DNA of 14,223 nt from a candidate division WOR-3 bacterium (GCA_965649115.1 CBFGJN010000050.1:1-14223); one strand, 5' to 3'; positions 1-14,223 are shown, numbered from the stretch's first letter. Notes: generated by a model not told the origin, from the sequence alone. Numbers and translations are program-made.

Positions 1-189
1 TAATGATAAGTCCTTGATTATCAATAGTTTATAAAAATTTTAAAGAAGTTATAGATTTAATGGGGGGTCTAATGGGGGGCAAAGCCCCCCAAAGCCTAAA
101 AATGGGCATTTATAAGCCGAAGGCTTAAATATAGGGTGGGTGGGAAAAATATAGAAAAATATATATTTTTGGAATTATTAGACAAAGCA
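1..189 (+). mobile_element. MITE-like repeat copy 1 (left end cut by window edge), non-autonomous derivative of the IS903-group element
   Basis: Ends in GGAATTATTAGACAAAGCA (171-189), an imperfect reverse complement of the IS left end TGCTTTGTCCAATAAAT. Contains the GGGGGGC-AAA-GCCCCCC (74-90) and TAAGCC-GAA-GGCTTA (113-127) hairpins and GGGTGGGTGGG shared with other copies. Confidence 0.85.
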
Positions 190-208
190 TTTTAACCAAA
201 TTTTTATG

Positions 209-217
209 CTTTAAAAT
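209..217 (+). promoter_or_regulatory. CTTTAAAAT -10-like box, 9 nt upstream of ATG 227
   Basis: The motif recurs before most transcription-unit-first genes; no SD-like sequence lies between the box and the ATG. Confidence 0.6.
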
Positions 218-226
218 TTTAGAACC

Positions 227-613
227 ATGCTTTTGACACTTTTGAGCTTAACATTACAAAGTGGTGGACAAGCTACTCAGCAAACTTCTACACAGACTCA
301 AACTCAAACACAAACTCAAACTGAAACGAAAACTGCTACTCAAACTCCTGCTAAGACTGAAAAATATGTTGGTGGTTATTACTTGTTCATAGTAAAAGGA
401 ACTGAGAAATGGTCCTTTGAATTACCAAAGGATAAGACAATTGATAAGGAAGCTTTCAAAAAAGAAATATCTTCAGTAAAAGGTGTAAAGGAAGTTCAAT
501 TTGATGAAAAGACAAAAACTTGGACAGTAAAAGTTGATAAGGAAGATGAAGTTGTAAAAGTCATAAACAAGTACGGTTTTGTAAAACACGATAAAAAAAC
601 AGAAACAAAGTAA
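227..613 (+). CDS. Small exported protein with TQ-repeat linker and HMA/ferredoxin-like C-terminal domain lacking CxxC
   Basis: Hydrophobic N-terminus MLLTLLSLTLQ and a (TQ)n tract. ISSVKGVKEVQFDEKTKTWTVKVD resembles the HMA-domain helix/strand pattern. No Cys in the protein. Confidence 0.65.
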   Translation: MLLTLLSLTLQSGGQATQQTSTQTQTQTQTQTETKTATQTPAKTEKYVGGYYLFIVKGTEKWSFELPKDKTIDKEAFKKEISSVKGVKEVQFDEKTKTWTVKVDKEDEVVKVINKYGFVKHDKKTETK

Positions 614-617
614 GCAA

Positions 618-636
618 AAGCCCCCTTTGGGGGCTT
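618..636. terminator. Perfect GC-rich hairpin AAGCCCCC-TTT-GGGGGCTT, terminator-like or RNA-structural element
   Basis: 8-bp stem with 3-nt loop directly after the stop at 613 and 2 nt before ATG 639. No U-tract follows on the + strand. Confidence 0.5.
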
Positions 637-638
637 AG

Positions 639-3101
639 ATGATAATATTTTTAGTTTCTCAATTTCAAATACCAAAACTTTCAAATTATGCTATTATAAA
701 TGCTAATATCTTTTTAAAAGATAGTATTATTAAAAATGGAACAATTATTGTAAAAAATGGCAAAATTTACAACGTTGGTAAAAACATAAAAATTCCTAAT
801 GATGTTTTAGTTTTAGATTATTCGGGAAAATATGTATATCCAGGATTTATTGAAATAATTTCAGAAATATCAATTGATACATTAAAGGAAATTGAAAAAT
901 TAAGAAATTTAGGATTTACAATTGTTCAAATTATTAACAAAGATAGTATATTAAGAGGATTTACGAAAATTGTTTTTACAGAAGATAGCATAAAAAAAGT
1001 TTCAGAAAACTCATATTTTGTTATTTCATTTCAAACTAATAAAGAAACATATCCTGTTTCTTTGATGGGAACAATTGCTAAAATAAGGCAGTTTCTTTAT
1101 GATGAAAATTTAAAGAATGTTTTATTTCTTACAAATAAAAATGAACTCAATGTTTTAAGAGCACAAAAAATTACTGATGAATTTAAACTAAATTCTTTAA
1201 TTTTTGGAACTAATAAGGAATTTAGGATTATTGAAAACCTGAAAAAAAATCAAAATTTAATTTTACCTTTGAAATTCGTAGATAGTTTAAGGAAAGAGCC
1301 AAGTTTAAATGAGCTCATAGATTGGAAGTTTTCAAGAGAAAATCCTAGAATTTTAGTTGAAAATGGTTATTCTTTTGCTTTAAGTTCAAATGAAATAAAA
1401 GAGCAGAATGAATTTTTAAAAAGTTTAAGAGAATTATCTAAAAGAATGGATGAAAATAAAATTATTTTATCATTAACCTTAATTCCCGCTAAAATGTTAG
1501 GAATTGATAATAATTATGGTTCAATTGAAAAGGGTAAAATGGCTAATTTTACGATAACTGACGGTAATATATTTAGTAAAAATAGCTCAATATTTGAAGT
1601 CTGGATAAATGGAATTATTTATAGAATTTCTAAATATCCAAGAAAGTTTTTTGGAAATTGGGAAGCAAAAATAAATGATAGTACTTTTAGCCTTAAAATT
1701 TATAAGGAAGGTAAGAGTTTGAAGGTTAAAATAAATGACAAAGCTTATTCTAATGTTTATTTTGAAAATAATGTCTTGGAAGTTGATAATTATAAATTTT
1801 ATTTTTCTGATGATGGTTGCTTAAATTGTAAATATATTTCAAAATTAGAAGAGGAAGAAATTAAGAAAATTAAAGAAAAAGAAAATCCACCGAAAATTTA
1901 TAAATTATTTCCAACTTTCAAAACAATTTTAATTAAAAATGGAACAATTTGGCTACCGGATACAATTTTAGAAAATACTGATATTTTTATAAAGAATGGA
2001 AAGATTGTAGAAATAGGAAAAAACTTGAATTTTAATGCTGAATATGTAATTGATGCAACTAATAAGCATATTACACCAGGTATATTTGACGCCCATTCGC
2101 ATATAGCAATAGATGGAGATGTCAATGAATGGTCGGAATCAATAACACCAGAAGTTAGAGTTATTGATGTTATAAATCCTTTTGATATAAACATTTATAG
2201 AGAACTATCAGGTGGTGTTACAACAGCTCATATTATGCATGGTTCAGCTAATGCTATTGGTGGTCAAAATGTTATAATTAAACTTAAATGGGGACTTCCC
2301 GCAGATAGCTTAGTATATAAAAATGCTCCAAGGACAATAAAATTTGCTCTTGGTGAGAATCCAAAAAGAAGTAATTGGTTAGAAAATTCAGATAGATATC
2401 CAAGAAGCAGGCTTGGAGTTATTTCAATTATTGAAGATGCTCTTTTAAAAGCAAAAAATTATAAAGGAAAAAAGAATTTGAGGATGGAAGCTTTAAAAGA
2501 TATTTTAGATGGCAAAATTCAAATCCATTGTCATGCATATAGACAAGATGAAATGTTAGCCTTAATGGAAAGTTTAAAAAAATTTGGTATTCAATTAAGA
2601 ATGTTTCACCATGCACTTGAAGCCTATAAAATATCCAAAGAATTAAAAAGGGAGAATGTTTATGTTTCTACATTTTCTGATTGGTGGTCTTATAAATTTG
2701 AAGCTTATGATGCTATTCCTTATAATGCTTTTATTACAACGAAAAATGATGTTTTAACTTCATTAAATTCAGATTCTCCTGAACTTGCAAGAAGATTAAA
2801 TAGTGAAGCAGGGAAAATGTTAAAATATGGATTTACAAAAGAAACTGATGCTTTAAAACTTATAACATTAAATCCTGCTAAACAATTCTCCATAGATAAA
2901 TTTATTGGTTCTCTTGAAAAAGGTAAAGATGCAGATTTTGTAATTTGGAATGGTAATCCATTATCCCCATATAGTATTGTTCTTGAAACTTGGATAGAAG
3001 GAAGAAAGTTTTTTGATAGAGAAGAAGACCTTAAAATTAGAAAAGAAATTAAACTATTGAAGGAAAAACTGATAAATGAATTTAAAAACTATTCAGAATA
3101 A
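639..3101 (+). CDS. Amidohydrolase-family protein with two tandem amidohydrolase modules (N-terminal one degenerate)
   Basis: Two 'IKNGTI...IKNGKI...PGFI/PGIFD' starts and two 'GSIEKGKMANF/GSLEKGKDADFVIW' ends. Metal ligands DAHSH, HCH, HH and NSD occur only in the C-terminal module. Confidence 0.9.
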   Translation: MIIFLVSQFQIPKLSNYAIINANIFLKDSIIKNGTIIVKNGKIYNVGKNIKIPNDVLVLDYSGKYVYPGFIEIISEISIDTLKEIEKLRNLGFTIVQIINKDSILRGFTKIVFTEDSIKKVSENSYFVISFQTNKETYPVSLMGTIAKIRQFLYDENLKNVLFLTNKNELNVLRAQKITDEFKLNSLIFGTNKEFRIIENLKKNQNLILPLKFVDSLRKEPSLNELIDWKFSRENPRILVENGYSFALSSNEIKEQNEFLKSLRELSKRMDENKIILSLTLIPAKMLGIDNNYGSIEKGKMANFTITDGNIFSKNSSIFEVWINGIIYRISKYPRKFFGNWEAKINDSTFSLKIYKEGKSLKVKINDKAYSNVYFENNVLEVDNYKFYFSDDGCLNCKYISKLEEEEIKKIKEKENPPKIYKLFPTFKTILIKNGTIWLPDTILENTDIFIKNGKIVEIGKNLNFNAEYVIDATNKHITPGIFDAHSHIAIDGDVNEWSESITPEVRVIDVINPFDINIYRELSGGVTTAHIMHGSANAIGGQNVIIKLKWGLPADSLVYKNAPRTIKFALGENPKRSNWLENSDRYPRSRLGVISIIEDALLKAKNYKGKKNLRMEALKDILDGKIQIHCHAYRQDEMLALMESLKKFGIQLRMFHHALEAYKISKELKRENVYVSTFSDWWSYKFEAYDAIPYNAFITTKNDVLTSLNSDSPELARRLNSEAGKMLKYGFTKETDALKLITLNPAKQFSIDKFIGSLEKGKDADFVIWNGNPLSPYSIVLETWIEGRKFFDREEDLKIRKEIKLLKEKLINEFKNYSE

Positions 3102-3116
3102 TTATCTTAAAATATA

Positions 3117-3254
3117 TGCTTTGTCCAGTAAATAATGTTAAGTAAAAAGCCCCCCGAAGCCGAAATATGGGTATTTTAAAGCCAAAGGCTTAAATATAGG
3201 GTGGGTGGGGAAAATATAGAAATAATCATATTTTTAGAATTACTAGACAAAACA
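3117..3254 (+). mobile_element. MITE-like repeat copy 2 (138 bp)
   Basis: Left end TGCTTTGTCCAGTAAATAATGTTAAG, right end GAATTACTAGACAAAACA, internal AAGCC-AAA-GGCTT and GGGTGGGTGGGG. Confidence 0.85.
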
Positions 3255-3272
3255 CATAGCCTTATTTATTAC

Positions 3273-3281
3273 CTTTAAAAT
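3273..3281 (+). promoter_or_regulatory. CTTTAAAAT -10-like box, 7 nt upstream of ATG 3289
   Basis: Recurrent motif; no SD before the ATG. Confidence 0.6.
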
Positions 3282-3288
3282 TTTATTT

Positions 3289-3729
3289 ATGAAAAATGGA
3301 AAAATTGAAATAGCATTAAAAAAATTAAATTTAGCAAAACGATATTTAGAAAATGCCAGAGAGTTATTAAAGCAAGCGGGAATTGACAGAAGAAGAAATG
3401 CTTATTCAGACTTAAAATATGTTTCTATGGCATCTGGAACAGCTTATTTATCAGCACTTGAAGCCTTAAAGGCAATATTTATACTGAAACTGAATGTAGA
3501 TGAAGAATTTATAAAGAAGAAAATTAAGGATATTTCAGTTTATAAGCAATATATTAAAGAGCTGAAAATTGGAAAAGATAAGGATTATATTCAAGGATTA
3601 TTAACTGATATTTATGACATTCTTCATCTTGGTGGCTATTATAGAGAATTACAAGATAAAAAAGCAATAGATAGTGGTTTTGAGAAAGTTGAAAAAATTA
3701 TTAAAATTGTTGAAAGTTATGTTAAGTAA
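3289..3729 (+). CDS. DUF5618-family (HEPN/PaREP1-like helical) protein
   Basis: AKRYLENARELL...Y.D.KYV.MA.GTAY..AL.AL and YDILHLGGYY patterns recalled as typical of DUF5618; 146 aa, predicted all-helical. Not confirmed by a search. Confidence 0.7.
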   Translation: MKNGKIEIALKKLNLAKRYLENARELLKQAGIDRRRNAYSDLKYVSMASGTAYLSALEALKAIFILKLNVDEEFIKKKIKDISVYKQYIKELKIGKDKDYIQGLLTDIYDILHLGGYYRELQDKKAIDSGFEKVEKIIKIVESYVK

Positions 3730-3744
3730 ATTCATTATCCTTTA

Positions 3745-3907
3745 TGCTTTTTCCAATAATTAATGTTAAGTAATTGATTATCAATAACTTATAAAAGCTT
3801 TGAGGAAATTATAGATTTAAATAGGTATTTTAAAGCCGAAGGCTTAATTTCAGGGTGGGTGGGAAAGTGTAGAAATGAATATAATTTCCGAATTATTGGA
3901 CAAGACA
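3745..3907 (+). mobile_element. MITE-like repeat copy 3 (163 bp)
   Basis: Left end TGCTTTTTCCAATAATTAATGTTAAG, right end GAATTATTGGACAAGACA, internal AAGCCGAAGGCTT and GGGTGGGTGGG. Confidence 0.85.
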
Positions 3908-3926
3908 AAAGCTTTAATTATCTTAA

Positions 3927-3935
3927 CTTTAAAAT
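3927..3935 (+). promoter_or_regulatory. CTTTAAAAT -10-like box, 10 nt upstream of proposed TTG start 3946
   Basis: Recurrent motif at the same distance from the repeat end as in the other copies. Confidence 0.55.
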
Positions 3936-3945
3936 TTTCAATAAA

Positions 3946-5892
3946 TTGTTATTTTTTCTGTTTTTGGAGATTGATACTACAAGAATTATTTTTAAAGGAA
4001 AAACTTTAATCTATCTTTCTGATAGCAATAAAGTTATATTAATAGATAGTGCTTATGTTAAAAGAGGAAATATTCAACTCTATTCTGACACAATTGAATA
4101 CTATATAAAAACGAAAATTGTTAAAGCGAGACCAAAATTTAAATTAGTAATTGATACATCAACAATAAAAGGTGATAGTTTAACCTATTTGTTAGATGAG
4201 CAAGAAGGATTAGCTTTTAATACAAAAAATTATATTCAAAAAGGATGGCTAAATTCAAATGAGCTTTATAAACTTAAAGGAGATACAATATATGTGAAAA
4301 GTGGTTATTTTACTACTTGTAATTTAGATACACCGCATTCTGCATTTTATGGAACAGAAATGTTAGCTATTAGAAATGATATGGCATTTATTAAAAATAT
4401 CGTTTTAAAAATAAAAGGAATACCTGTCTTATATGCTCCATTTTGGATGTTTCCATTAAAAGAAAATAGAAGTAGTGGTTTTTTGGCACCAAACTTTGGA
4501 TTTAATAGCATAGATGGAAGATATATTAGAAATTTGGCATTTTATTGGGCAATAAATAATTATATGGATGCCACAATTTATTCTGATATTGTTGAAAGAC
4601 AAGGGATTCGCTTAGGAATAAATTTTGTTTATAACGTTTATAAAAAATTCAACGGCACTATAAATGCTAATTTTTCAAATGATTTTGTTTTTCAAGGTAT
4701 TAGAAGAAGATATGCTATTGAAGGAAATCATAATCAAGATTTGTATAAATTTAGGATTTCAAGTAGATTTTCTATTGTTTCTGACCAAAGTTATTTTCAG
4801 GATTATGCAGAAAATAAAAATCAATGGCTAAAAACAGAAACTTATTCTTATTTACAAATTAGTAGAAATTTCTTTTTTGGTGGTTTCTCTTCAAATTTTG
4901 ATTGGACAAAAAATCTCATTACAAATCAAAGCAACTCAAACTTACCAAATTTAGTAATAACTTTCAATAGTATTAATTTGTATAGCTTTTTAATATCTCA
5001 AAATTCATCTTTCAATCAGAACATATTCATAGATAGCCTTGGAAATGAATATAGAAATTTATCTTTTGGTTATAATTTTTCAATTACAAGACCTTTGAAC
5101 ATTTTAAACATATTAAAACTTTCAAATAATGCTAATTTACCATTTTCAATAAAAAAAATTGCTAATGATAGCCTTTGGAGAGGAAATTTAGTTTTGAATT
5201 ATTCAAGTGGTTTATCAACAACAATATATGGAAGAAGTTTATTTAGAATTTGGAAAATTGAAAAATTTTATCATGATATAACGCCTTCTGTTGGAATTAG
5301 TTATTCCAAATCACTTATAAATATCTATACTGACACAATTCCTTCAAGTTTTAATTACACTTACTCCATAACAAACCAATTCTCTGTAAAAATTAACAAT
5401 AAGAAGTACTCAATTGGGACACTTTCATTAAGTGGAAACTATAACCCTAAATCAAATTTCCCATTTTCTCCTTTATCAATAAGCTTGGTTTTACCAAGAT
5501 TTTTAAATATATCTGCAAGCTTTTCAACAAGTTATGATTATTATACGAAAAGCTTTTCTCAAATAAATGGTAATTTTAATTATAGTCAATCAATTTTTGG
5601 TTATAACTTATCTGCTTCCATGTCAATACCACAAAATATATTAAATTTTTCAATTTCAGGAAAATTAACAAACAAATGGAGTTTTAGTTATTCAACAAGT
5701 AGAGATTTTAATTTAGGTGTTTTTCAGGGTCAAAATTTATCATTGAAAAGAGATTTACATGAATGGACTGCTGAAATTTCTTATTCATCAATTGGAATAT
5801 TTTCCGTTTATGATTTTAGAATTTATCTAATAGCAATTCCAGAAATCAAAATTACAAAAGGTTTATTAAACCTTTTCTTCCCCACTCAATAA
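3946..5892 (+). CDS. lptD: LPS-assembly outer-membrane protein LptD/OstA family; start re-assigned from 3859 to TTG 3946
   Basis: OstA-like N-terminal beta-jelly, FTTC motif, [11 protein letters not shown]...[20 protein letters not shown]-terminal RDLHEW barrel segment. The GTG at 3859 lies inside repeat copy 3. Confidence 0.85.
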
Positions 5893-7131
5893 AATGTTAT
5901 AAAATGGAAATTGCTTACATAGTTCTTTCACTAATCCTTTTGCCCAAATTTTTGTTTTATCATCAGGATTCTTTAAAACTTTTGCAATTATTTTACCAAC
6001 AATTTTCAATTCTTCTTCTTTCATACCCCTTGTAGTTAAAATTGGTGTTCCAATTCTTATTCCACTTGTAATTGTTGGTTTTTGAGGATCAAACGGAATT
6101 GTATTTTTATTAACTGTTATACCTATTTCTTCAAGCAGTTTTTCAGCATCTTTTCCTGTTATATTCAAATTTCTTAAATCAACAAGAACTAAATGATTAT
6201 CTGTTCCATTTGTAACTAACTTCAAACCTTCTTCTATAAGGCTCTCAGCTAATGCTTTACTATTTCTAACAATTTGCTCCCCATACTTTCTAAATTCAGG
6301 CTTTAAAGCTTCTCCAAATGCTACGGCTTTGGCAGCAATAATGTGCATAAAAGGACCACCTTGAATTCCTGGAAAAACAACCTTGTCTATCTTCTCTGAA
6401 ATTTCTTTATCATCTGTTAATATCATACCCCCTCTTGGTCCTCTTAATGTTTTATGTGTTGTTGTTGTTATAACATGAGCATAACCTTTTGGTGAAGGAT
6501 GGACATTAGAAACTATAAGTCCTGCGATATGAGCTATATCCGCCATCAAATAAGCATTAATTTTATCAGCTATTTCTCTAAATTTTTCCCATTCAACGAT
6601 TCTTGGATAAGAGGAGTATCCAGCAACAATAATTTTAGGTTTATATTCAATAGCAAGTTTATAAACAAGGTCAAAGTCTATCCTTTCAGTTTCTTTATTA
6701 ACACCATAATGAATAACATTATAAAATTTTCCAGAAAAACTTACTTTTGCCCCATGACTTAAATGTCCTCCATGAGAAAGTTCCATAGACAAAATGATAT
6801 CACCAGGTTCAAGCAAAGCAAAATAAACAGCCATATTTGCTTGACTACCTGAATGTGGCTGAACATTAACATAATTTATATTAAATAATTTTCTTGCTCT
6901 TTCTTGGGCTAAAAGCTCTGCTTTATCAACAAATTCGCAACCTCCATAATATCTTTTATTAGGATAACCCTCCGCATATTTATTATTTAGTGGTGTTGCC
7001 ATAGTTAAAAGAACTGGTAGAGAAGGATAATTTTCAGAAGCTATCATTTCTAAGGTCCATTCTTGTCTTTTTATTTCATTAATAATTACTTCATAAATTT
7101 CAGGGTCGTTTTCTTTTATAATTTCATACAT
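5866..7131 (-). CDS. glyA: Serine hydroxymethyltransferase
   Basis: [55 protein letters not shown] (PLP lysine), [16 protein letters not shown]. Confidence 0.98.
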
Positions 7132-7162
7132 AAGTTTTTAAAGTTTAAAGCCAAAATTAAAA

Positions 7163-7312
7163 TGCTTTGTCCAATAAATAATGTTAAAGGAAATTATTGA
7201 ATTTTAGCCCCCCATAACCGAAAAATGGGTATTTTTAAGCCGAAGGCTTAATATCAGGGTGGGTGGGAAAAATATAGAAAAATAAATAATTTCAGAATTA
7301 TTAGACACACCA
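7163..7312 (+). mobile_element. MITE-like repeat copy 4 (150 bp) flanked by 9-bp direct repeat AAATTAAAA
   Basis: First 25 nt match the IS left end at 14008 in 24/25 positions. Right end GAATTATTAGACACACCA. AAATTAAAA occurs at 7154-7162 and 7313-7321. Confidence 0.9.
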
Positions 7313-7321
7313 AAATTAAAA

Positions 7322-7382
7322 TGCCTTGTTTAGTAATTCCGAAGATATATATTTTTTGCCCACCAGCCCTATAATTGAGCTC
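7322..7382 (-). mobile_element. Inverted right-end fragment of the same repeat family
   Basis: Reverse complement reads ...TATAGGGCTGGTGGGCAAAAAATATATATCTTCGGAATTACTAAACAAGGCA, matching the right end of copy 1. Confidence 0.75.
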
Positions 7383-7398
7383 ATGGAAATTTTAATTA

Positions 7399-7407
7399 CT
7401 TTAAAAT
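7399..7407 (+). promoter_or_regulatory. CTTTAAAAT -10-like box, 9 nt upstream of ATG 7417
   Basis: Recurrent motif; no SD before the ATG. Confidence 0.55.
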
Positions 7408-7416
7408 TTGAAAGTT

Positions 7417-8484
7417 ATGAACAACACTAAAACTACTCCACTCTATCCACTTCATTTAGAGCTTAAAGCAAAAATAACTAATTTTCACGATTGGTTAATG
7501 CCCCTTTACTATGAAAGTATAATAAATGAGCACATTTGGACAAGAAATAATGTTTCAATTTTTGATGTTTCCCATATGGGTAGAATTTTAATAAAAGGAA
7601 AATTCTCACAAGATTTCTTAAATTACATTACAACGATAAACATAAAAGAATTAAAGAATTACCAAGCAAAGTACGGTTTAATGTTAAATGATAATGCTGG
7701 AATAATAGATGATATAGTAGTTTATAAATTTTCAGATGAGGAATTTATGATGGTTGTAAATTCAGGAACAAAAGAAAAAGATTTAAAACATATGTTTAAA
7801 TATTCAAAACAATTTAATGTTGAAATTGTTGATATTTCAGAAAACTTATCTCAAATAGCTGTTCAAGGTCCAAAATCAAAGGAAATTCTTGAAAGCTTTC
7901 TAAAAATAAATTTAGATATTCCATATTACCATTTTATAAAAAAAGAAAATTTTATAATTTCAAGAACAGGATATACACCAGAGGATGGTTTTGAAATTTA
8001 TATTAGTTCATCTGAAATTCTTGAATTTACTAAATCATTACTGAAATCTGAATTAGTTAAAATGGCAGGGCTTGGAGCAAGAGACACACTTAGACTTGAA
8101 GCAGGATATTGTTTATATTCAAATGATATAAGTGAAGAAATAGACCCTATCAGTGCTAAACTAAAATGGACTGTTTATTTTGATAAGGAGTTTTTAGGCA
8201 AAGAAAAATTATTAGAAATTATTAAAAATGGAAATGAACTTACAAGAATAGGTTTCATTTCAATTGAAAACACAATTCCAAGAAAAGGGAATGAAATTTA
8301 TATTAATTTTAATAAAGTTGGTTATGTTACAAGTGGAACATTTTCTCCTTCATTAAATAAAGGTATTGGAATGGGTTATATAAAGAAGGAATTTTCAGAA
8401 GTTGGAAATGAAATTTTAATAAATTCAAAGAAATACAAAATTGTTAAACTTCCTTTTGTAAGAGGGAGCTTAAAACGTCAATAA
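7417..8484 (+). CDS. gcvT: Glycine cleavage system aminomethyltransferase T (start likely ATG 7417)
   Basis: KTTPLY..H, FDVSHMG, GIIDDIVVY, IAVQGPKS, SRTGYT.EDGFEI, GLGARDTLRLEAGYCLY, VTSGTFSPSL.KGIGMGY. Confidence 0.97.
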   Translation: MNNTKTTPLYPLHLELKAKITNFHDWLMPLYYESIINEHIWTRNNVSIFDVSHMGRILIKGKFSQDFLNYITTINIKELKNYQAKYGLMLNDNAGIIDDIVVYKFSDEEFMMVVNSGTKEKDLKHMFKYSKQFNVEIVDISENLSQIAVQGPKSKEILESFLKINLDIPYYHFIKKENFIISRTGYTPEDGFEIYISSSEILEFTKSLLKSELVKMAGLGARDTLRLEAGYCLYSNDISEEIDPISAKLKWTVYFDKEFLGKEKLLEIIKNGNELTRIGFISIENTIPRKGNEIYINFNKVGYVTSGTFSPSLNKGIGMGYIKKEFSEVGNEILINSKKYKIVKLPFVRGSLKRQ

Positions 8485-9550
8485 CATAATTAATTTCTTC
8501 ATCTTTTAAATTTGGATAAAAAGGCAGACTTAAAACATGATTTGAAAACCAACATGCATTTTTAAATTGATTTTCGTTATAACCAAACTTTTCTCTATAA
8601 AACTTCAATAATGGTATAGGTTTTGGATAATGAACTGAAACTTCAATACCATTTTCAATTAATTTTTCCATTATTTTATCTCTTTCTTCAACTAAAATTA
8701 CAAAAAGATGGTAAGCACTCTTGCCATAAATTTTTGGCATATTTACATTTAAATTTTTAAGAGCATTATAATAAGTCTCGTAAATTTTTTTCCTTTTCTG
8801 CCATAAATCATCAATCCTTTTCAATTGAGTTATTAACATACTTGCTTGAAAATTCGTTAAATTATATTTCCATCCTAACAACTCCATATCATATAAAATT
8901 TTGTGTTTCCTTCTATCAAGTCCGTGAAGTCTCAATAATTTTAGCTTTTCTAAAAACTTTTCATTATTAAAAACAATAGCTCCACCTTCTCCACAAGTTA
9001 TATTTTTTGTCGCATAAAAACTAAAACAAGCAAAATCACCAAATCCTGGTTTATATCCATCTCTTTCCCCTTCTATGCAATGGGCACTATCTTCAACTAT
9101 ATAAACTCCATATTTTTCTTTTAAAAATAGTAAATCTTTTGGAGAAACCATCTGACCATAAAGATGAACTGGCATAATTACTCTAATTTTTTTATCTCTT
9201 TTAATTAAATCTTCAACAATATTCAAATCCATTAGTCCTGTTTCCCTATCAATATCAACAAACACAACTTCTCTATTAGCCATTAAAACCGCATTAGCAG
9301 ATGCCATAAATGATAATGCAGGAACAATAACCTTTTCGTCGTAGTCTAATTCTAATGCTAAAATTGATAAGTGTAACGCAGAGGTGCAACTATTAACACT
9401 TAAACAATACTTTACATTTAAATATCTTGAAAAAAGTTCTTCAAATTCCTCATTTTTATTTCCACTTGTTAAATAAGGTGATTTTAAGGTATTTATAACT
9501 TCATTAATATCTTCTTCATTTAAAGAATGCCTGAAAAATGGAATTTTCAT
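8444..9550 (-). CDS. DegT/DnrJ/EryC1/StrS-family PLP-dependent nucleotide-sugar aminotransferase
   Basis: VNSCTSALHL, PVHLYGQ, VEDSAH, CFSFYATKNITCGEGG (PLP lysine), LSLPFYP. Confidence 0.95.
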   Translation of the reverse strand: MKIPFFRHSLNEEDINEVINTLKSPYLTSGNKNEEFEELFSRYLNVKYCLSVNSCTSALHLSILALELDYDEKVIVPALSFMASANAVLMANREVVFVDIDRETGLMDLNIVEDLIKRDKKIRVIMPVHLYGQMVSPKDLLFLKEKYGVYIVEDSAHCIEGERDGYKPGFGDFACFSFYATKNITCGEGGAIVFNNEKFLEKLKLLRLHGLDRRKHKILYDMELLGWKYNLTNFQASMLITQLKRIDDLWQKRKKIYETYYNALKNLNVNMPKIYGKSAYHLFVILVEERDKIMEKLIENGIEVSVHYPKPIPLLKFYREKFGYNENQFKNACWFSNHVLSLPFYPNLKDEEINYVIDVLSSLLQKEV

Positions 9551-9831
9551 TTAAAACTTACATTTGAAATTTCACCATTACAATTTCCATTAATTGTTAA
9601 AGGAATTTTATAAGGTTTTCTTCTTGTAGGAATGATTTTAGCTTCACTTAAATTTATAATTTTTTTTCCTTGACCATTAATTTCTGTTTCAAGTTTATAA
9701 ACTTCATAGCCCTTTGAAAATGTTATATAAATTTTACAAGCATTATTAACTTTGTAATCAATTTCTATTTGAGTTTTTCCTTCAAGCTCATAATTCTTTA
9801 ATTCATAAAAGAGAGCAAAAAGAAAAATCAT
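9547..9831 (-). CDS. Small hypothetical protein with short hydrophobic N-terminus
   Basis: Fills the gap between co-oriented genes: 3-nt gap upstream, ATGA overlap with the DegT gene. Begins MIFLFALFY. Confidence 0.7.
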   Translation of the reverse strand: MIFLFALFYELKNYELEGKTQIEIDYKVNNACKIYITFSKGYEVYKLETEINGQGKKIINLSEAKIIPTRRKPYKIPLTINGNCNGEISNVSFK

Positions 9832-9834
9832 GTT

Positions 9835-11238
9835 TTAACCTCCTATTTTATAAACTTCGTTATTTATCTTCAAAATATAAGCCCCTCTTTTATTTAAATT
9901 GAAAATCTCATTAAAACCAGGCTTAACATCTATTTTAGATTCATAAACAAGCCCACCATTAATTTTATAGACCTTCATATCAATTTTTTCGTTTTTATTT
10001 GAAATGTAAATAACTTTTTTGCCTTTTATAAGTATTTTATTTTCAGAGAATTTTTCATTTGCCTTAACAATCAAGTTATTTATTTTAGCATAGGTTGAAT
10101 AAACATGAAAGTATCCGGTTCTATTGTCAGCCCAAGCAACATAAACATTTTGGCTATCAGCATAGGCCTCAATATAATGACCAGGCCAACAATTATAATT
10201 TACATTATCAACACTACCGCAATCATTTTCCTCAACGAATTCAAACGTTGTATCACTTACTCTTATAGGAGAGCTCCAACTACTTCCAAAATTTACAGAA
10301 TATGAATAGAATAAAGCCCATTTTTTATATGAAATTTTATAGAAATAGAATAAATGAGCATTTCCATAGGGATCAAATATAATAGCAGGCATATAATATG
10401 TTGAATTGTTTCCGTTTGGAGCAACCATAAATGTATCCCAAGAAATTAGATTATATCTTAAAATATAAACTCTCCAATCATTTCTACTACCTGTCCTTGT
10501 ATGCATGTATGCATTCAATACTCTACCATTATAAGCATCCGCATGAATGCCTTGTGGATAGGGATTTGGGATAATAACTGAATGCATAATAGCAACTTTT
10601 TGAGAATTAGTCCAATTTAAGCAATCCGTTGAACTTGATACATAAATCCCAACATTTGTTGGATCATCACCCCAGAAGAAAACCCAAAATTTACTTTTAT
10701 CACTTGTTATAATTGGGACACCACCATTAGTAGAATTTGGAACATTTACAATTGTCCAATTATTTCCATTATCAAATGAGCAAGCAACTCTTATAATACT
10801 TGAACTACCAGAATATGAAGCAAAAACAATAGCAATTGTATCTTTCTTAATAGCCATCCATGGATGGTCAAGGCTACCAGTTGAAATTATTTTGGTAGTA
10901 GTAAAGGAATTTCCAAAATCCATAGTCTTTCTATAAGCAATTGAAGTAGAATTCAACCAAACAATATGAATTATGCCTCCATTTTCTTTAACAACAGGGT
11001 CGCAACAGTCACTGTTTCCAAATATAGAATTATTATCATTACCCCAAGTTTTCGTTGTATCAAGACTTCTATCGTACCAATTACCTCCTGTTGTTCCATT
11101 ATCAACCCAGCTTGAAATAGATTTAAATTGTGTTGTAGTAATAGATATTTCAGCCTGCTCATTAGAGCCTGTTTTATCATCTATTTTTACATTTGGTTTA
11201 AAAGGAAAATCAAGAATTAAAAAATTTAAAAGAAACAT
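9835..11238 (-). CDS. Secreted BNR/Asp-box (sialidase-like beta-propeller) protein with T9SS type-A-like C-terminal domain
   Basis: Asp-boxes SLDTTKTW, TMDFGNSF, SFDNGNNW, STDCLNW, SVNFGSSW; VYVAWADNR; C-terminal VYKINGGLV...GAYILKI. Confidence 0.8.
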   Translation of the reverse strand: MFLLNFLILDFPFKPNVKIDDKTGSNEQAEISITTTQFKSISSWVDNGTTGGNWYDRSLDTTKTWGNDNNSIFGNSDCCDPVVKENGGIIHIVWLNSTSIAYRKTMDFGNSFTTTKIISTGSLDHPWMAIKKDTIAIVFASYSGSSSIIRVACSFDNGNNWTIVNVPNSTNGGVPIITSDKSKFWVFFWGDDPTNVGIYVSSSTDCLNWTNSQKVAIMHSVIIPNPYPQGIHADAYNGRVLNAYMHTRTGSRNDWRVYILRYNLISWDTFMVAPNGNNSTYYMPAIIFDPYGNAHLFYFYKISYKKWALFYSYSVNFGSSWSSPIRVSDTTFEFVEENDCGSVDNVNYNCWPGHYIEAYADSQNVYVAWADNRTGYFHVYSTYAKINNLIVKANEKFSENKILIKGKKVIYISNKNEKIDMKVYKINGGLVYESKIDVKPGFNEIFNLNKRGAYILKINNEVYKIGG

Positions 11239-11244
11239 ATGAAA

Positions 11245-11253
11245 ATTTTAAAG
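11245..11253 (-). promoter_or_regulatory. CTTTAAAAT -10-like box, 6 nt upstream of ATG 11238
   Basis: Minus strand reads TACCTTTAAAATTTTCAT-ATG; no SD. Confidence 0.6.
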
Positions 11254-11272
11254 GTAAAAAATGTTTATTTCC

Positions 11273-11456
11273 TGCTGTGTCCAAAAATTCTGGAATTATT
11301 TATTTTTCAAAAGCCTTCGGCTTTAAAATACCCAATTTTTCGGACTTGGGGGCTTTGCTCCCATAAATTCCCTCCATTAAAACTATAATTTCAGAAAATT
11401 TCTCATAAATTATCAATCACTTAATTTCTATATTTTGCCCAATCGCCCTGAAATAA
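11273..11456 (-). mobile_element. MITE-like repeat copy 5 (minus strand, rearranged, left terminal repeat not recognisable)
   Basis: Minus strand ends GAAAAATAAATAATTCCAGAATTTTTGGACACAGCA and contains GGGAGCAAAGCCCCC and GGGTATTTTAAAGCCGAAGGCTT. A degenerate CAGGGCGATTGGGCAAAATATAGAAA block lies out of order at about 11425-11456. Confidence 0.8.
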
Positions 11457-11504
11457 CGGAGGCTTCACTTAAACAAATCAGATTTTTTAAGCGATAACAT
11501 TAGG

Positions 11505-11540
11505 CTTTAAAATTTTGAAGAATTTTTTAAAGGAGGGTGA
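11505..11540 (+). promoter_or_regulatory. CTTTAAAAT -10-like box (11505-11513) followed by a strong Shine-Dalgarno AGGAGG (11531-11536)
   Basis: Seen directly in the sequence. SD spacing favours ATG 11543 over GTG 11537. Confidence 0.65.
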
Positions 11541-11542
11541 TT

Positions 11543-13945
11543 ATGATATGGATCTTTTTATATACTGATTTAACTGATAAGTTTATCTACAAGTATGTAA
11601 AAACCTATAATGTTTCGTATGATGAAGTTGTAAGTTTCATAAGAGATGCTAAATTAGAGGTAATTTCCTCTTATGTTCAAGAATTTTTCAATATATCCCC
11701 TCAAAAGGAAGCTTATCATTATGCTGAGTTAATAAAGGAAGATATTCTCAACAATAAACCAAATAAAAACAAAGATAATAATCCTGTGATAAATGTTAGT
11801 TATGTGGGTTGTGGTCCTGCTTCTTCTAAATGGCAATGGGGTAACGATAACGGGGGACCTTCTTGCACAGGTGCTAATAGGTGTTGGGGTACAATTCTAA
11901 ATGGAAACTATCTTCCAAATATGGAGGATACACTTTATTCACCAGTAATAAATGCTAGTGGATATAATAATATCGTTTTGAGATTTAGACAATGGTACGA
12001 TACTGAAAATAATTATGATCAGGGTTTTGTCTTGTGTTCAAATGATGGTGGAACTACTTGGTATCAAGTTGCTGGACCTTATCAAGGAAATTCTGGTGGT
12101 TGGATAAATACAACCCTTAATCTTCCTGCACAATGTCAAAATACTTCACAACTTAGAATAGCTTTTAGATTTAAGAGTGATGGTTCTGTTCAATACTATG
12201 GTTGGTATATAGATGATGTTGTTATTGAAAATCAGAATTTATCAGGAACAACAGTTTTATATGCAAGTTCATTTGAGGGTGCTGATAATGGGGATTTAAA
12301 TCCTGTTTCAATTTCAGGGACTGCCCCTTGGCAGAGAGGTGTTCCAACAAGTGGTCCAGCTTCTGCCTATGATGGAAGTAATGTATGGGCTACAAATTTA
12401 AGTGGAAATTATAATAATAATGCTGATGAGGCAATTGAAAAGCAAACTGCTATTAATTTAAGTTGTGCAGGTTGTTCTAATTATTATATGAGATTTTATC
12501 ATTATGTTCATACAGAAACAGGTTATGATAGTGGATGGGTTGAATTAAACACAGGTGCTGGATGGTTTAAATTCTCGCCATCATATAGAGGAAATGGTTT
12601 TTCTGGTCCATTAACACCAACTTGGCAGTTAGTTCAACTTGATTTATCCTCTTATGCAGGAAGTTCTATTAGATTTAGGTTTAGATTTAAGAGTGATGGT
12701 TCTGTTAATTATCCAGGATGGTATATAGATAGTTTAAGTATAATTGGCGCTAATGTTTCTACAACAACAATTGCTTCTTATGATTTTAATGCTAATGATG
12801 GTGGATGGACTGCTACCCAAGCAATTTCAATATCAGACCCTTATCAATTAACTAATGGTTATCTTGAATGGTATATAGATATTTTAAATACTAACGATTT
12901 AGGAACATATACTGCAAGAACTGGTCCAAGTCATCCATCTGGAATAATTAGCATTTTATTTGGAGCACAATTTTCTCCACCAAGTGCTTGGTCATCTTGG
13001 ACTACAATTAGGTCTAACTATTCTATGAGGGATTACATTACCAAAAATAGTTCTGCAACACCACCAGCAGGTTATACATCAGTCCAATTAAAGCCTTATG
13101 CTCAAACTGTTATATGTGAGCCTGCAATTCCAAGGTTAACAATTATTTATAGAGTAAATGATGGAACAGATAATTTCACAGCAAAGGAGATATTTTGGAT
13201 AACGGGAAGTGATGCTAATTCTTCAAGATTGTGGCACAAAACTGTAATTATAAATAACGCATCTAATATAAGATATTATGGTGTAAGATGGGAATATGAT
13301 ACGCATGTCGGCTCTAATGATAATCCCGCTCATTTTAGATGTGATTTTTATCCTTCTTTAACATTAAATTGTACTCCTCAAATTACAACTGAACAAACAG
13401 TTAATCCTGTTCCAAATACATTTGACTTTTTAAGAGAAAGCAATTCAGATCCACCTACTGCATATCATTTATTTGTAGTTTATGGTGATGGAGGCTCTCC
13501 GAGTGGTATTACACCTCCTGATTTTGTTCAGCATATAAGATGGGGTGATGCTCATGCTTATACTTGGGATCAAGGCGTCAATGGTGAAGATATAAGTTTA
13601 TCAACAGGTTATGATAACGCATTTAATTACTTTTTCAATCCAAGACCAGTTAATCCGAATGATAGCATTTCGTTTAATCATTATATAGGTTCTCCTATTA
13701 ATCCAACACCAATAAATTATGATGAAATAAAACTTGGAAATTATCGTGTTAAAATCTATAAGACAAATGAAGGATTTAATATATATTATGATGGGAAGGA
13801 TGTGATTGAAGTTTCAATTTATGATATAAATGGTTCTCTTGTTAAGCGTGCTAATTTGAAAAATGGAAACAACTATGTTAAAATTCAAAGAAGTGGAGTT
13901 TATATTATAAAAGGTGAAAATTGGATAATAAAGGCAATTAGGTAA
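11543..13945 (+). CDS. Large secreted protein with two cleaved-adhesin/MAM/InhA-like jelly-roll domains, an uncharacterised C-terminal region and a T9SS-like sorting domain
   Basis: Duplicated 'WQ.G...GP......W.T.L.GNY...LRF...YDTE..YD.G.V...W...FRFKSDGSV.Y.GWYID' unit; C-terminal VSIYDINGSLVK...SGVYIIK. Confidence 0.8.
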   Translation: MIWIFLYTDLTDKFIYKYVKTYNVSYDEVVSFIRDAKLEVISSYVQEFFNISPQKEAYHYAELIKEDILNNKPNKNKDNNPVINVSYVGCGPASSKWQWGNDNGGPSCTGANRCWGTILNGNYLPNMEDTLYSPVINASGYNNIVLRFRQWYDTENNYDQGFVLCSNDGGTTWYQVAGPYQGNSGGWINTTLNLPAQCQNTSQLRIAFRFKSDGSVQYYGWYIDDVVIENQNLSGTTVLYASSFEGADNGDLNPVSISGTAPWQRGVPTSGPASAYDGSNVWATNLSGNYNNNADEAIEKQTAINLSCAGCSNYYMRFYHYVHTETGYDSGWVELNTGAGWFKFSPSYRGNGFSGPLTPTWQLVQLDLSSYAGSSIRFRFRFKSDGSVNYPGWYIDSLSIIGANVSTTTIASYDFNANDGGWTATQAISISDPYQLTNGYLEWYIDILNTNDLGTYTARTGPSHPSGIISILFGAQFSPPSAWSSWTTIRSNYSMRDYITKNSSATPPAGYTSVQLKPYAQTVICEPAIPRLTIIYRVNDGTDNFTAKEIFWITGSDANSSRLWHKTVIINNASNIRYYGVRWEYDTHVGSNDNPAHFRCDFYPSLTLNCTPQITTEQTVNPVPNTFDFLRESNSDPPTAYHLFVVYGDGGSPSGITPPDFVQHIRWGDAHAYTWDQGVNGEDISLSTGYDNAFNYFFNPRPVNPNDSISFNHYIGSPINPTPINYDEIKLGNYRVKIYKTNEGFNIYYDGKDVIEVSIYDINGSLVKRANLKNGNNYVKIQRSGVYIIKGENWIIKAIR

Positions 13946-14007: not shown

Positions 14008-14223
14008 TGCTTTGTCCAATAAATAATGTCAAGGGGGGTTTAGGGGTTAAGAATTTAGGATTTAAAATTTTGGAATGGGGAAGATAAACTGGCAAAAATA
14101 TAACAAGGAATTGGTAAGGAGGGGTGAAATATGGGTGAGCAAGGAATTAATAGGGAAAATAAAAGAGAAAGAGGACGATGAGAAGGAGAAGAGAGGGAGG
14201 CCATACAAATATCCTACTTTTTT
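14008..14223 (+). mobile_element. Left end of an IS5-family (IS903-group) insertion sequence, truncated by the window
   Basis: Terminal TGCTTTGTCCAATAAAT resembles the IS903 inverted repeat as I recall it (GGCTTTGTTGAATAAATC). A transposase N-terminus starts 67 nt further in. Confidence 0.85.
14075..14223 (+). CDS. IS5/IS903-group DDE transposase, N-terminal part (absent from ORF track, runs off the window)
   Basis: Manual translation MGKINWQKYNKELVRRGEIWVSKELIGKIKEKEDDEKEKRGRPYKYPTF carries the NW..YN..L..RG and RGRP..Y motifs of IS903-type transposases. TAAAAT lies 6 nt upstream of the ATG. Confidence 0.85.
   Translation, partial: MGKINWQKYNKELVRRGEIWVSKELIGKIKEKEDDEKEKRGRPYKYPTF

Follow-up and report, generated by a model that had tools for sequence, protein, structure and literature searches.

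Oriented placement of an IS5-family miniature element at a fixed distance upstream of a putative promoter box in a candidate division WOR-3 bacterium

The closest described systems are TnGBS, ISLre2 and the ISKra4 group, mobile elements whose transposases are prokaryotic Mutator-like enzymes. The paper on them (PMC3942029) reports oriented insertion at sigma-A promoters, 15-17 bp upstream of the -35 and such that the right repeat adjoins the promoter, and attributes the orientation to unequal ends. [quoted passage not shown] Herein, we analyzed a stretch of 14,223 nt from a candidate division WOR-3 bacterium ("the window", contig C50; GCA_965649115.1, CBFGJN010000050.1:1-14223), which is contained in public runs labelled as hot-springs metagenomes, and the MITE that is repeated in it and throughout the genome. 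This MITE lies preferentially in one orientation and at a fixed distance from a box that belongs to the host, is often flanked by target duplications, and behaves like its full-length parent insertion sequence (IS) and like diverged relatives in other genomes.

Judged by its ends and by the transposase of its parent, the element is a ~203-nt MITE derived from an IS5-family (IS903-like) IS with 9-bp duplications. The inverted tips, TGCTTTGTCC... at the left and ...GGACAAAGCA at the right, are common to the MITE copies, the IS left end at window position 14008 and the IS right ends. With a median length of 203-204 nt the MITE is too short to code; it is present in 236 complete copies, and the element family covers 96.9 kb, or 5.2% of the assembly. 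Positions 14066-14221 of the window code for a 52-amino-acid (aa) N-terminal piece of the transposase, which alone matches the IS5-family profile (E = 1.3e-5) and is 96% identical to a 300-aa protein, P0001. P0001 in turn matches NCBIfam NF033579 with 245.5 bits (cutoff 140) over profile positions 2-288 of 289, matches PF01609 and PF13737, and is ~30% identical over 96-97% of the length to the transposases of the plasmid-borne ISVa1 and ISAba10. The full-length NF033579 match, the two Pfam domains and the 9-bp duplications are all as in the IS903-type members of IS5; a 9-bp duplication marks the IS903 group (ISfinder).

The phasing was examined across the 1.85-Mb assembly (99 contigs, 27.6% G+C). 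Profiles of the 70 nt inside each end were built from copies with exact tips, and nhmmer returned 548 right-end and 363 left-end matches. After exclusion of ends with an unresolved tip (profile start >6; 83 right and 28 left) and of another 7 right and 6 left ends that lay no more than 60 nt from the end of a contig, 458 right ends and 329 left ends were analyzed. Allowing at most one mismatch to the box CTTTAAAATTT, and counting the gap from the element tip to the TAAAAT within it, the ends were distributed as follows.

Box at a gap of 21-22 nt: 183 right ends, 3 left ends
Box at a gap of 13-16 nt: 58 right ends, 4 left ends
Abutting the tip of another element ~9 nt away: 112 right ends, 133 left ends
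Box elsewhere within 50 nt: 15 right ends, 18 left ends
Neither box nor neighbouring tip: 90 right ends, 171 left ends

The right-end gaps were sharply peaked, with no case at 17-19 nt, 2 at 20, 46 at 21, 137 at 22, 5 at 23, 1 at 24 and only 4 from 25 to 50 nt. The difference between the two ends at 21-22 nt (183/458 right against 3/329 left) corresponds to an odds ratio of 72 (Fisher's test, p = 8e-47). When an exact TTTAAAAT was required, 112 right ends remained at 22 nt and 40 at 21 nt, compared with only 3 left ends at 21-22 nt. A logo of 347 terminal right flanks, made with no preselection, recovered CTTTAAAATTT at positions 20-30, while positions 1-12 carried no more than 0.09 bits. A first reading of the window (the original prediction), which drew on four right ends, had proposed a genome-wide count of distance and orientation, with a broad distribution as the contrary outcome; the sharp peak obtained here strongly supports the first of its three alternatives, that insertion is targeted at promoters.

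The DNA between element and gene is host sequence, and comparison with related genomes shows that the putative promoter box belongs to the host gene. In the 22-nt gaps (n = 112), positions 1-14 carry 0.0-0.1 bits, pairwise identity averages 37%, and 111/112 gaps have a sequence of their own. As expected of a target duplication, the 9 nt outside the left tip recur at the start of the gap, as its first 9 nt, in 54/85 complete copies of the 21-22 nt class, 15/24 of the 13-16 nt class and 58/115 of the others, against 217/4480 for shuffled partners; one mismatch was tolerated in this count, as was displacement of the tip by up to 2, and strict matches of 8-9/9 were found in 44/85 copies of the 21-22 nt class. 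All classes together, an 8-9-nt duplication was recognized in 127/224 complete copies. For the window gene 9835-11238, the orthologs in the congeners G001, G002 and G004 all keep CTTTAAAAT at an unchanged distance from the ATG, and no element lies upstream of it; in the G002 ortholog of gene 3289-3729 a box variant directly follows the stop codon of the upstream gene, again with no element. Thus, at both promoters for which the comparison with orthologs lacking the repeat was made, as the original prediction had suggested, the box or a variant of it was present and the element was not; since these promoters are empty in the sister species, both insertions are young. Among contigs of four hot-spring DNA runs compared with the window, no empty site was found: none of the 15 joints listed (of 187) skips exactly one element, and the contigs break at repeats.

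Position and conservation suggest that the box is a promoter. The string CTTTAAAATTTT occurs 386 times in the genome, where a composition estimate predicts ~7. Altogether, 423 CTTTAAAAT boxes have a start codon 3-13 nt (mostly 6-10 nt) downstream that opens at least 60 codons. Because the start codon thus lies 6-10 nt past TAAAAT at most recognizable promoters, their mRNAs would be leaderless or near-leaderless. A right end lies at 21-22 nt from 120 of these 423 boxes and at 13-16 nt from a further 33 (153/423, ~36%). For 100 boxes with a longer leader the numbers were 17 and 6, respectively, and for TTTAAAAT strings that lack the C and have a close start codon they were 10/80 and 2/80. No occupancy was found for TTTAAAAT strings that have neither the C nor a start codon close by (0/1686), and boxes without the following TT were essentially never occupied, box-like strings inside the element (0/133) among them. 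Boxes also precede 32/45 tRNA genes; they end 7-11 or 14-20 nt upstream of the mature 5' end, most often at 8-9 or 15 nt, and this bimodal spacing (8-9 or 14-15 nt) suggests two classes of tRNA leader length. The 261 unoccupied leaderless-like promoters have no -35-like signal (maximum 0.14 bits from -50 to -8), so that the original placement of the element edge at the sigma70 -35 position stands as geometry, while no -35-like motif accompanies it. The conserved part of these promoters is only roughly TTAT[GC]CTTTAAAATTT, and a scan of the window for canonical sigma-70 promoters remained at chance level (93 matches, against 86.3 +/- 9.0 in shuffles).

The full-length IS was analyzed solely through end pieces at contig ends. 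Its body is absent from the assembly, which has no contig shorter than 2.8 kb, and no pair of left and right ends 600-3000 nt apart in the assembly encodes a transposase; at least 10 left and 10 right full-IS ends lie at contig ends. Of the 10 right ends, 5 face a box (no more than one mismatch) across a gap of 22 nt, another 2 face weak variants, and in the remaining 3 the tip of another element follows at 9 nt. Since right ends of the full IS also lie at 22 nt, the autonomous element obeys the same rule as the MITE. The possibility that the box mimics a subterminal repeat was raised by TCTAAAAT at positions 17-24 of the MITE right end and was dropped, because the right end of the full IS lacks that string. 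Elsewhere in this genome (C51:6377-8158), two genes are enclosed by one right and one left end, spaced 1782 nt apart, and may be a captured pair; by eye, one is DNA methyltransferase-like, with the partner open reading frame alongside.

Relatives of the element were sought with the 138-nt window copy, which gave 34 matches in the congener G002 and 2 in G003; no match was found in the other two congeners, G001 and G004, or in 36 more distant relatives. Nineteen G002 loci were taken around the best matches, the flanks being ignored in the choice. Their terminal right ends lie 21-23 nt from the box in 10/19 cases and 14-15 nt from it in 7/19, and 2/19 show neither. Seven right ends could be resolved on metagenome contigs that carry transposases 63-75% identical to P0001: at 22 nt, the box is canonical in three and a variant in one, while in the other three a left tip follows at 9 nt (one case) or nothing is seen (two cases). 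The N-terminal piece of the transposase matched only one fragment among 40 relatives, at a contig end in G013, and a scan of genome contigs with P0001 found no relative.

The minor register of right ends peaks at 14 nt, where the 9-nt duplication directly abuts the box. Calculated from the gaps, the duplication edge that is nearer the promoter in the major register and the one that is farther from it in the minor register coincide within a base, ~13-14 nt upstream of TAAAAT. At gap-14 sites the box is preceded by TG (TGCTTT, as in the element tip) in 11/20 cases, against 59/338 unoccupied sites (p = 3e-4).

Copies are also stacked. A right end abuts a recognized left tip in 109 cases, 94 of them at exactly 9 nt, and complete copies form 29 pairs and 3 triplets, of which 28/32 end at a box. 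In 10/29 pairs all three 9-mers agree; in 5/29 (contigs C4, C64, C5, C1 and C3) only the outer two do, which suggests that the pair moved as one composite unit. The C1 and C3 dimers have a nearly identical inner spacer, as if one dimer had been copied. Insertion abutting a tip was considered as a separate mode and rejected, since only 1/29 dimers has a duplication on the distal copy alone; most 9-nt junctions would therefore reflect several insertions into one promoter site or the joint transposition of a dimer. As to age order, the better score belongs to the proximal copy in 20 pairs and to the distal one in 15, and perfect duplications were seen in 12/32 proximal and 9/32 distal copies.

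The features of the window are as follows.

1-189, plus strand: MITE copy 1, left part cut off where the contig begins; right tip at 189, then a gap of 22 nt
209-219, plus strand: putative promoter box CTTTAAAATTT of gene 227-613; TAAAAT at 212, ATG 9 nt past TAAAAT
3117-3254, plus strand: MITE copy 2, 138 nt; right tip at 3254, duplication not clean (3/9)
3273-3283, plus strand: putative promoter box of the DUF5618 gene 3289-3729; TAAAAT at 3276, 21-nt gap from the tip at 3254
3745-3907, plus strand: MITE copy 3, 163 nt, with its right tip at 3907; duplication partial (6/9)
3927-3937, plus strand: putative promoter box of an LptD-like gene; TAAAAT at 3930, 22-nt gap, start probably TTG at 3946
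7134-7143, minus strand: variant box CTTTAAAAAC of the serine hydroxymethyltransferase (SHMT) gene 5866-7131 (Pfam SHMT); 22 nt from the left tip of copy 4
7163-7312, plus strand: MITE copy 4, 150 nt; perfect 9-bp duplication AAATTAAAA at 7154-7162 and 7313-7321 (9/9)
7322-7380, minus strand: inverted right-end fragment, tip at 7322
7399-7409, plus strand: putative promoter box of the aminomethyltransferase (GcvT) gene; TAAAAT at 7402, ATG at 7417
11243-11253, minus strand: putative promoter box of gene 9835-11238 (minus); TAAAAT at 11250, 22-nt gap from the tip at 11273
11273-11422, minus strand: MITE copy 5; right tip at 11273, no left tip
11504-11514, plus strand: unoccupied putative promoter box of gene 11537-13945, whose leader contains AAGGAGG
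14008-14223, plus strand: left end of the full-length IS; tip at 14008, own box at 14061-14068, transposase ATG at 14075; runs off the contig

At the four gaps first reported, TAAAAT lies within CTTTAAAATTT, with a start codon 5-9 nt later in the three cases with a clear ATG. These gaps, 22, 21, 22 and 22 nt, were reproduced from the tips at 189, 3254, 3907 and 11273 (minus) to TAAAAT at 212, 3276, 3930 and 11250 (minus); at every one of these tips the right end faces the gene, and copies 2 and 3 do lack clean duplications (3/9 and 6/9 matches). Copy 4 is reversed relative to the SHMT promoter. Subtracting copy 4 and one duplicate would place the tip of the fragment 7322-7380 at 22 nt from the SHMT box, and we infer that this fragment is an older phased insertion. 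As copy 4 sits in the 9-bp site adjoining the tip of the older fragment, with its left end 22 nt from the SHMT box, the phased site of SHMT would have received two insertions, the later of them in the reversed orientation, which is rare.

Several further observations were made in the window. The inner, truncated end of the inverted fragment (~7379-7380) lies 22 nt upstream of the GcvT TAAAAT at 7402 and has no element tip; this spacing could be a coincidence or the scar of a lost phased copy. A short right-part piece of another copy adjoins copy 5 at ~11423-11470, and the two together look like a nested or recombined remnant. On the bottom strand, each element copy has a GC hairpin, AAGCC-loop-GGCTT, running directly into CTTTAAAAT and then ACCC (for example at 11311-11329 on the plus strand and at 3174-3192). 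Gene 227-613 contains a 12-nt tandem repeat in three copies (284-332) that codes for a Thr/Gln-rich stretch, and its protein has no Pfam match.

Taken together, we consider it very probable that the element is placed by oriented transposition that is targeted to, and anchored on, the promoter box. An IS of ~1.1 kb, by the end pieces seen, would encode the 300-aa DDE transposase and mobilize both itself and the ~203-nt MITE. The preferred target would be the 9 bp at 22 to 14 nt upstream of the TAAAAT in CTTTAAAATTT, with the right inverted repeat toward the promoter. Because the duplication regenerates the target, the promoter from ~-34 downstream would stay intact and the same site could be used again, giving head-to-tail stacks with 9-nt spacers. 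The anchor would be the box itself, and the orientation may stem from unequal left and right ends. How the box is recognized is a closely balanced matter; that the transposase complex reads the DNA of the box directly seems slightly likelier than that bound polymerase tethers it. The need for TT after the box and the enrichment of the tip-like TG at gap-14 sites both hint at direct readout.

That RNA polymerase holoenzyme, or a sigma factor on the box, recruits or positions the transposase at its upstream edge is a serious alternative to direct readout, to which we assign somewhat less than an even chance; insertion would be targeted here as well. With TAAAAT taken as -12 to -7, the junction falls arithmetically at ~-34/-35, the upstream border of the polymerase footprint. 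All kinds of promoters are targeted (leaderless-like, leader-bearing and tRNA), and box-like strings outside promoter contexts are spared (the 0/1686 and 0/133 above). The tip mimicry in the 14-nt register points instead to DNA readout, and the transposase has no extra domain. Fixed distances upstream of transcription units, tRNA genes included, are known for Ty3 and Ty1 of yeast and TRE5-A of Dictyostelium, eukaryotic retrotransposons that use the transcription machinery as a landmark and whose integrases are tethered to Pol III factors. The present element, unlike these, is bacterial, and the tether is here a candidate only. A more radical version, possible yet doubtful, holds that the transposase reads no DNA and is placed by promoter-bound holoenzyme, as an independently evolved bacterial counterpart of Ty3/TFIIIB; the 22- and 14-nt registers, sharing one cut ~13-14 nt upstream of TAAAAT, would then be two ways of docking on the upstream face of polymerase. 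A transposase superfamily unrelated to the present one has the same habit, according to the part of the Mutator-like study at hand (PMC3942029), which also fits a tether.

Several points weigh against anchoring on the box or against its direct readout. The NCBIfam profile spans residues 5-292 of the 300 in P0001, leaving no extra domain to explain targeting. With the box 11-21 bp past the duplicated 9 bp, direct readout would have to span a long distance, and the insertion point at ~-34/-35 is also the expected end of the polymerase footprint. Boxes without TT may not be promoters, in which case their non-occupancy fits a polymerase tether equally well. The box is taken as a promoter on position and conservation only. 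Finally, 90/458 right ends have neither box nor neighbouring tip, in a further 15 the box stands at some other distance, and about a third of the phased complete copies (31/85) have no recognizable duplication.

The remaining explanations fare less well than targeted, box-anchored insertion. In addition to targeting, copies might be kept as a host upstream module, for instance an insulator against read-through or an AT-rich upstream element, which corresponds to the domestication named third in the original prediction; we regard this as unlikely. It would suit the occupancy of ~36% of leaderless-like box promoters (153/423), the GC-rich hairpins of the element, and the 96.9 kb (5.2%) that the family takes up in a compact genome. 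Against it, two congeners (G001 and G004) have no match to the 138-nt copy, both orthologous promoters checked are empty in sister species, and a simple terminator scan flagged none of the window copies; no observation requires a host function.

It is very improbable that insertion is near-random in AT-rich intergenic DNA, with selection retaining only the copies just upstream of an intact promoter. Intergenic regions are short, insertions in genes or core promoters would be lost, and two window copies begin 14-15 nt past an upstream stop codon, all as this explanation would have it. However, promoter positions -22 to -9 carry no sequence information; selection would therefore be unable to distinguish a gap of 18 from one of 22, and yet the peak stands at 21-22. 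Left ends show no pattern (3/329), and stacks re-use the same 9 bp despite the neutral DNA available in the upstream element.

Slighter still is the chance that adjacent deletions from the element end trimmed the flank down to the essential promoter, which was the second alternative of the original prediction. The 31/85 phased complete copies without a duplication, window copies 2 and 3 included, would fit; however, in the 54/85 that retain one (against 217/4480 shuffled partners) the gap begins with its right copy, 9 nt that a deletion would have eliminated, the 5/29 dimers with a duplication around the pair explain some of the "missing" ones, and the spacing of 22 nt recurs in full IS copies and in diverged relatives. 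That gap and box are part of the element and bring their own outward promoter, the outcome named at the outset as contrary to promoter phasing, is barely credible: some BLAST matches between copies do extend through the box, but this is because the box is an 11-12-nt near-identical string, whereas the gaps are unique (111/112) and carry ~0 bits, the inverted repeat stops before the gap, the duplication lies inside it, the box precedes the ATG by an equal distance in the G001, G002 and G004 orthologs, which have no element, and the same box stands at 261 unoccupied leaderless-like promoters.

Promoter homing itself is already known from Mutator-like elements; new here are the unrelated transposase family, the distance, the promoter type, the MITE amplification and the stacking. 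The statement that no such promoter phasing had been described thus falls for Mutator-like elements (PMC3942029, as far as the available text goes) and holds for IS5-family elements and MITEs, for which a full-text literature search, with supplements outside it, found no promoter phasing. As far as that text describes TnGBS, ISLre2 and the ISKra4 group, the present element resembles them in its fixed distance upstream of promoters, its conserved orientation with the right repeat beside the promoter, and its sparing of genes. It differs from them in that its transposase belongs to the IS5 family, an unrelated superfamily; in that it inserts 21-22 nt from a -10-like box, at the -35 position itself and with no -35 motif, rather than 15-17 bp upstream of a -35; and in its hundreds of MITE copies, tandem stacks and second register at 13-16 nt. 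No Mutator-type family appeared among the Pfam and NCBIfam matches of the transposase, the promoter-targeting motif of that paper itself not being searched for.

Within the IS5 family, the target preference of IS903 was reportedly described by Hu and Derbyshire in 1998 as a symmetric pattern around the duplication, with no reported tie to promoters; the anchor seen here is, in contrast, one-sided, 11-21 bp away and promoter-linked. MITEAba12, with its parent ISAba12, is likewise an IS5-family-derived MITE with 9-bp duplications, of which only 40% are still recognizable, and its inverted repeats start with GGCTTTGT..., close to the TGCTTTGT... of the present element; unlike what is found here, the portion of that paper available describes no promoter phasing (PMC6382973). 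Correia elements of Neisseria are also abundant MITEs that lie mostly just upstream of genes. According to the part of the review at hand (PMC10969869) they carry their own promoter sequences, whereas here the box is that of the host, outside the inverted repeat and beyond the duplication, and the box-like string inside the element is never a target (0/133).

If borne out, these findings would represent a second, unrelated lineage of bacterial transposases that homes to promoters with single-nucleotide precision, which argues that, in compact genomes, the DNA upstream of promoters generally offers mobile elements a safe place. In scale the case is unusual: the family makes up ~5% of the genome, and ~36% of recognizable leaderless-type promoters carry it with no loss of genes. 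A 300-aa enzyme whose target rule is one-sided and measured by distance would be a tractable system for studying target choice by DDE transposases. For the uncultured lineage itself, the element may serve to mark promoters, and its distribution suggests that these promoters tolerate arbitrary sequence upstream of ~-34.

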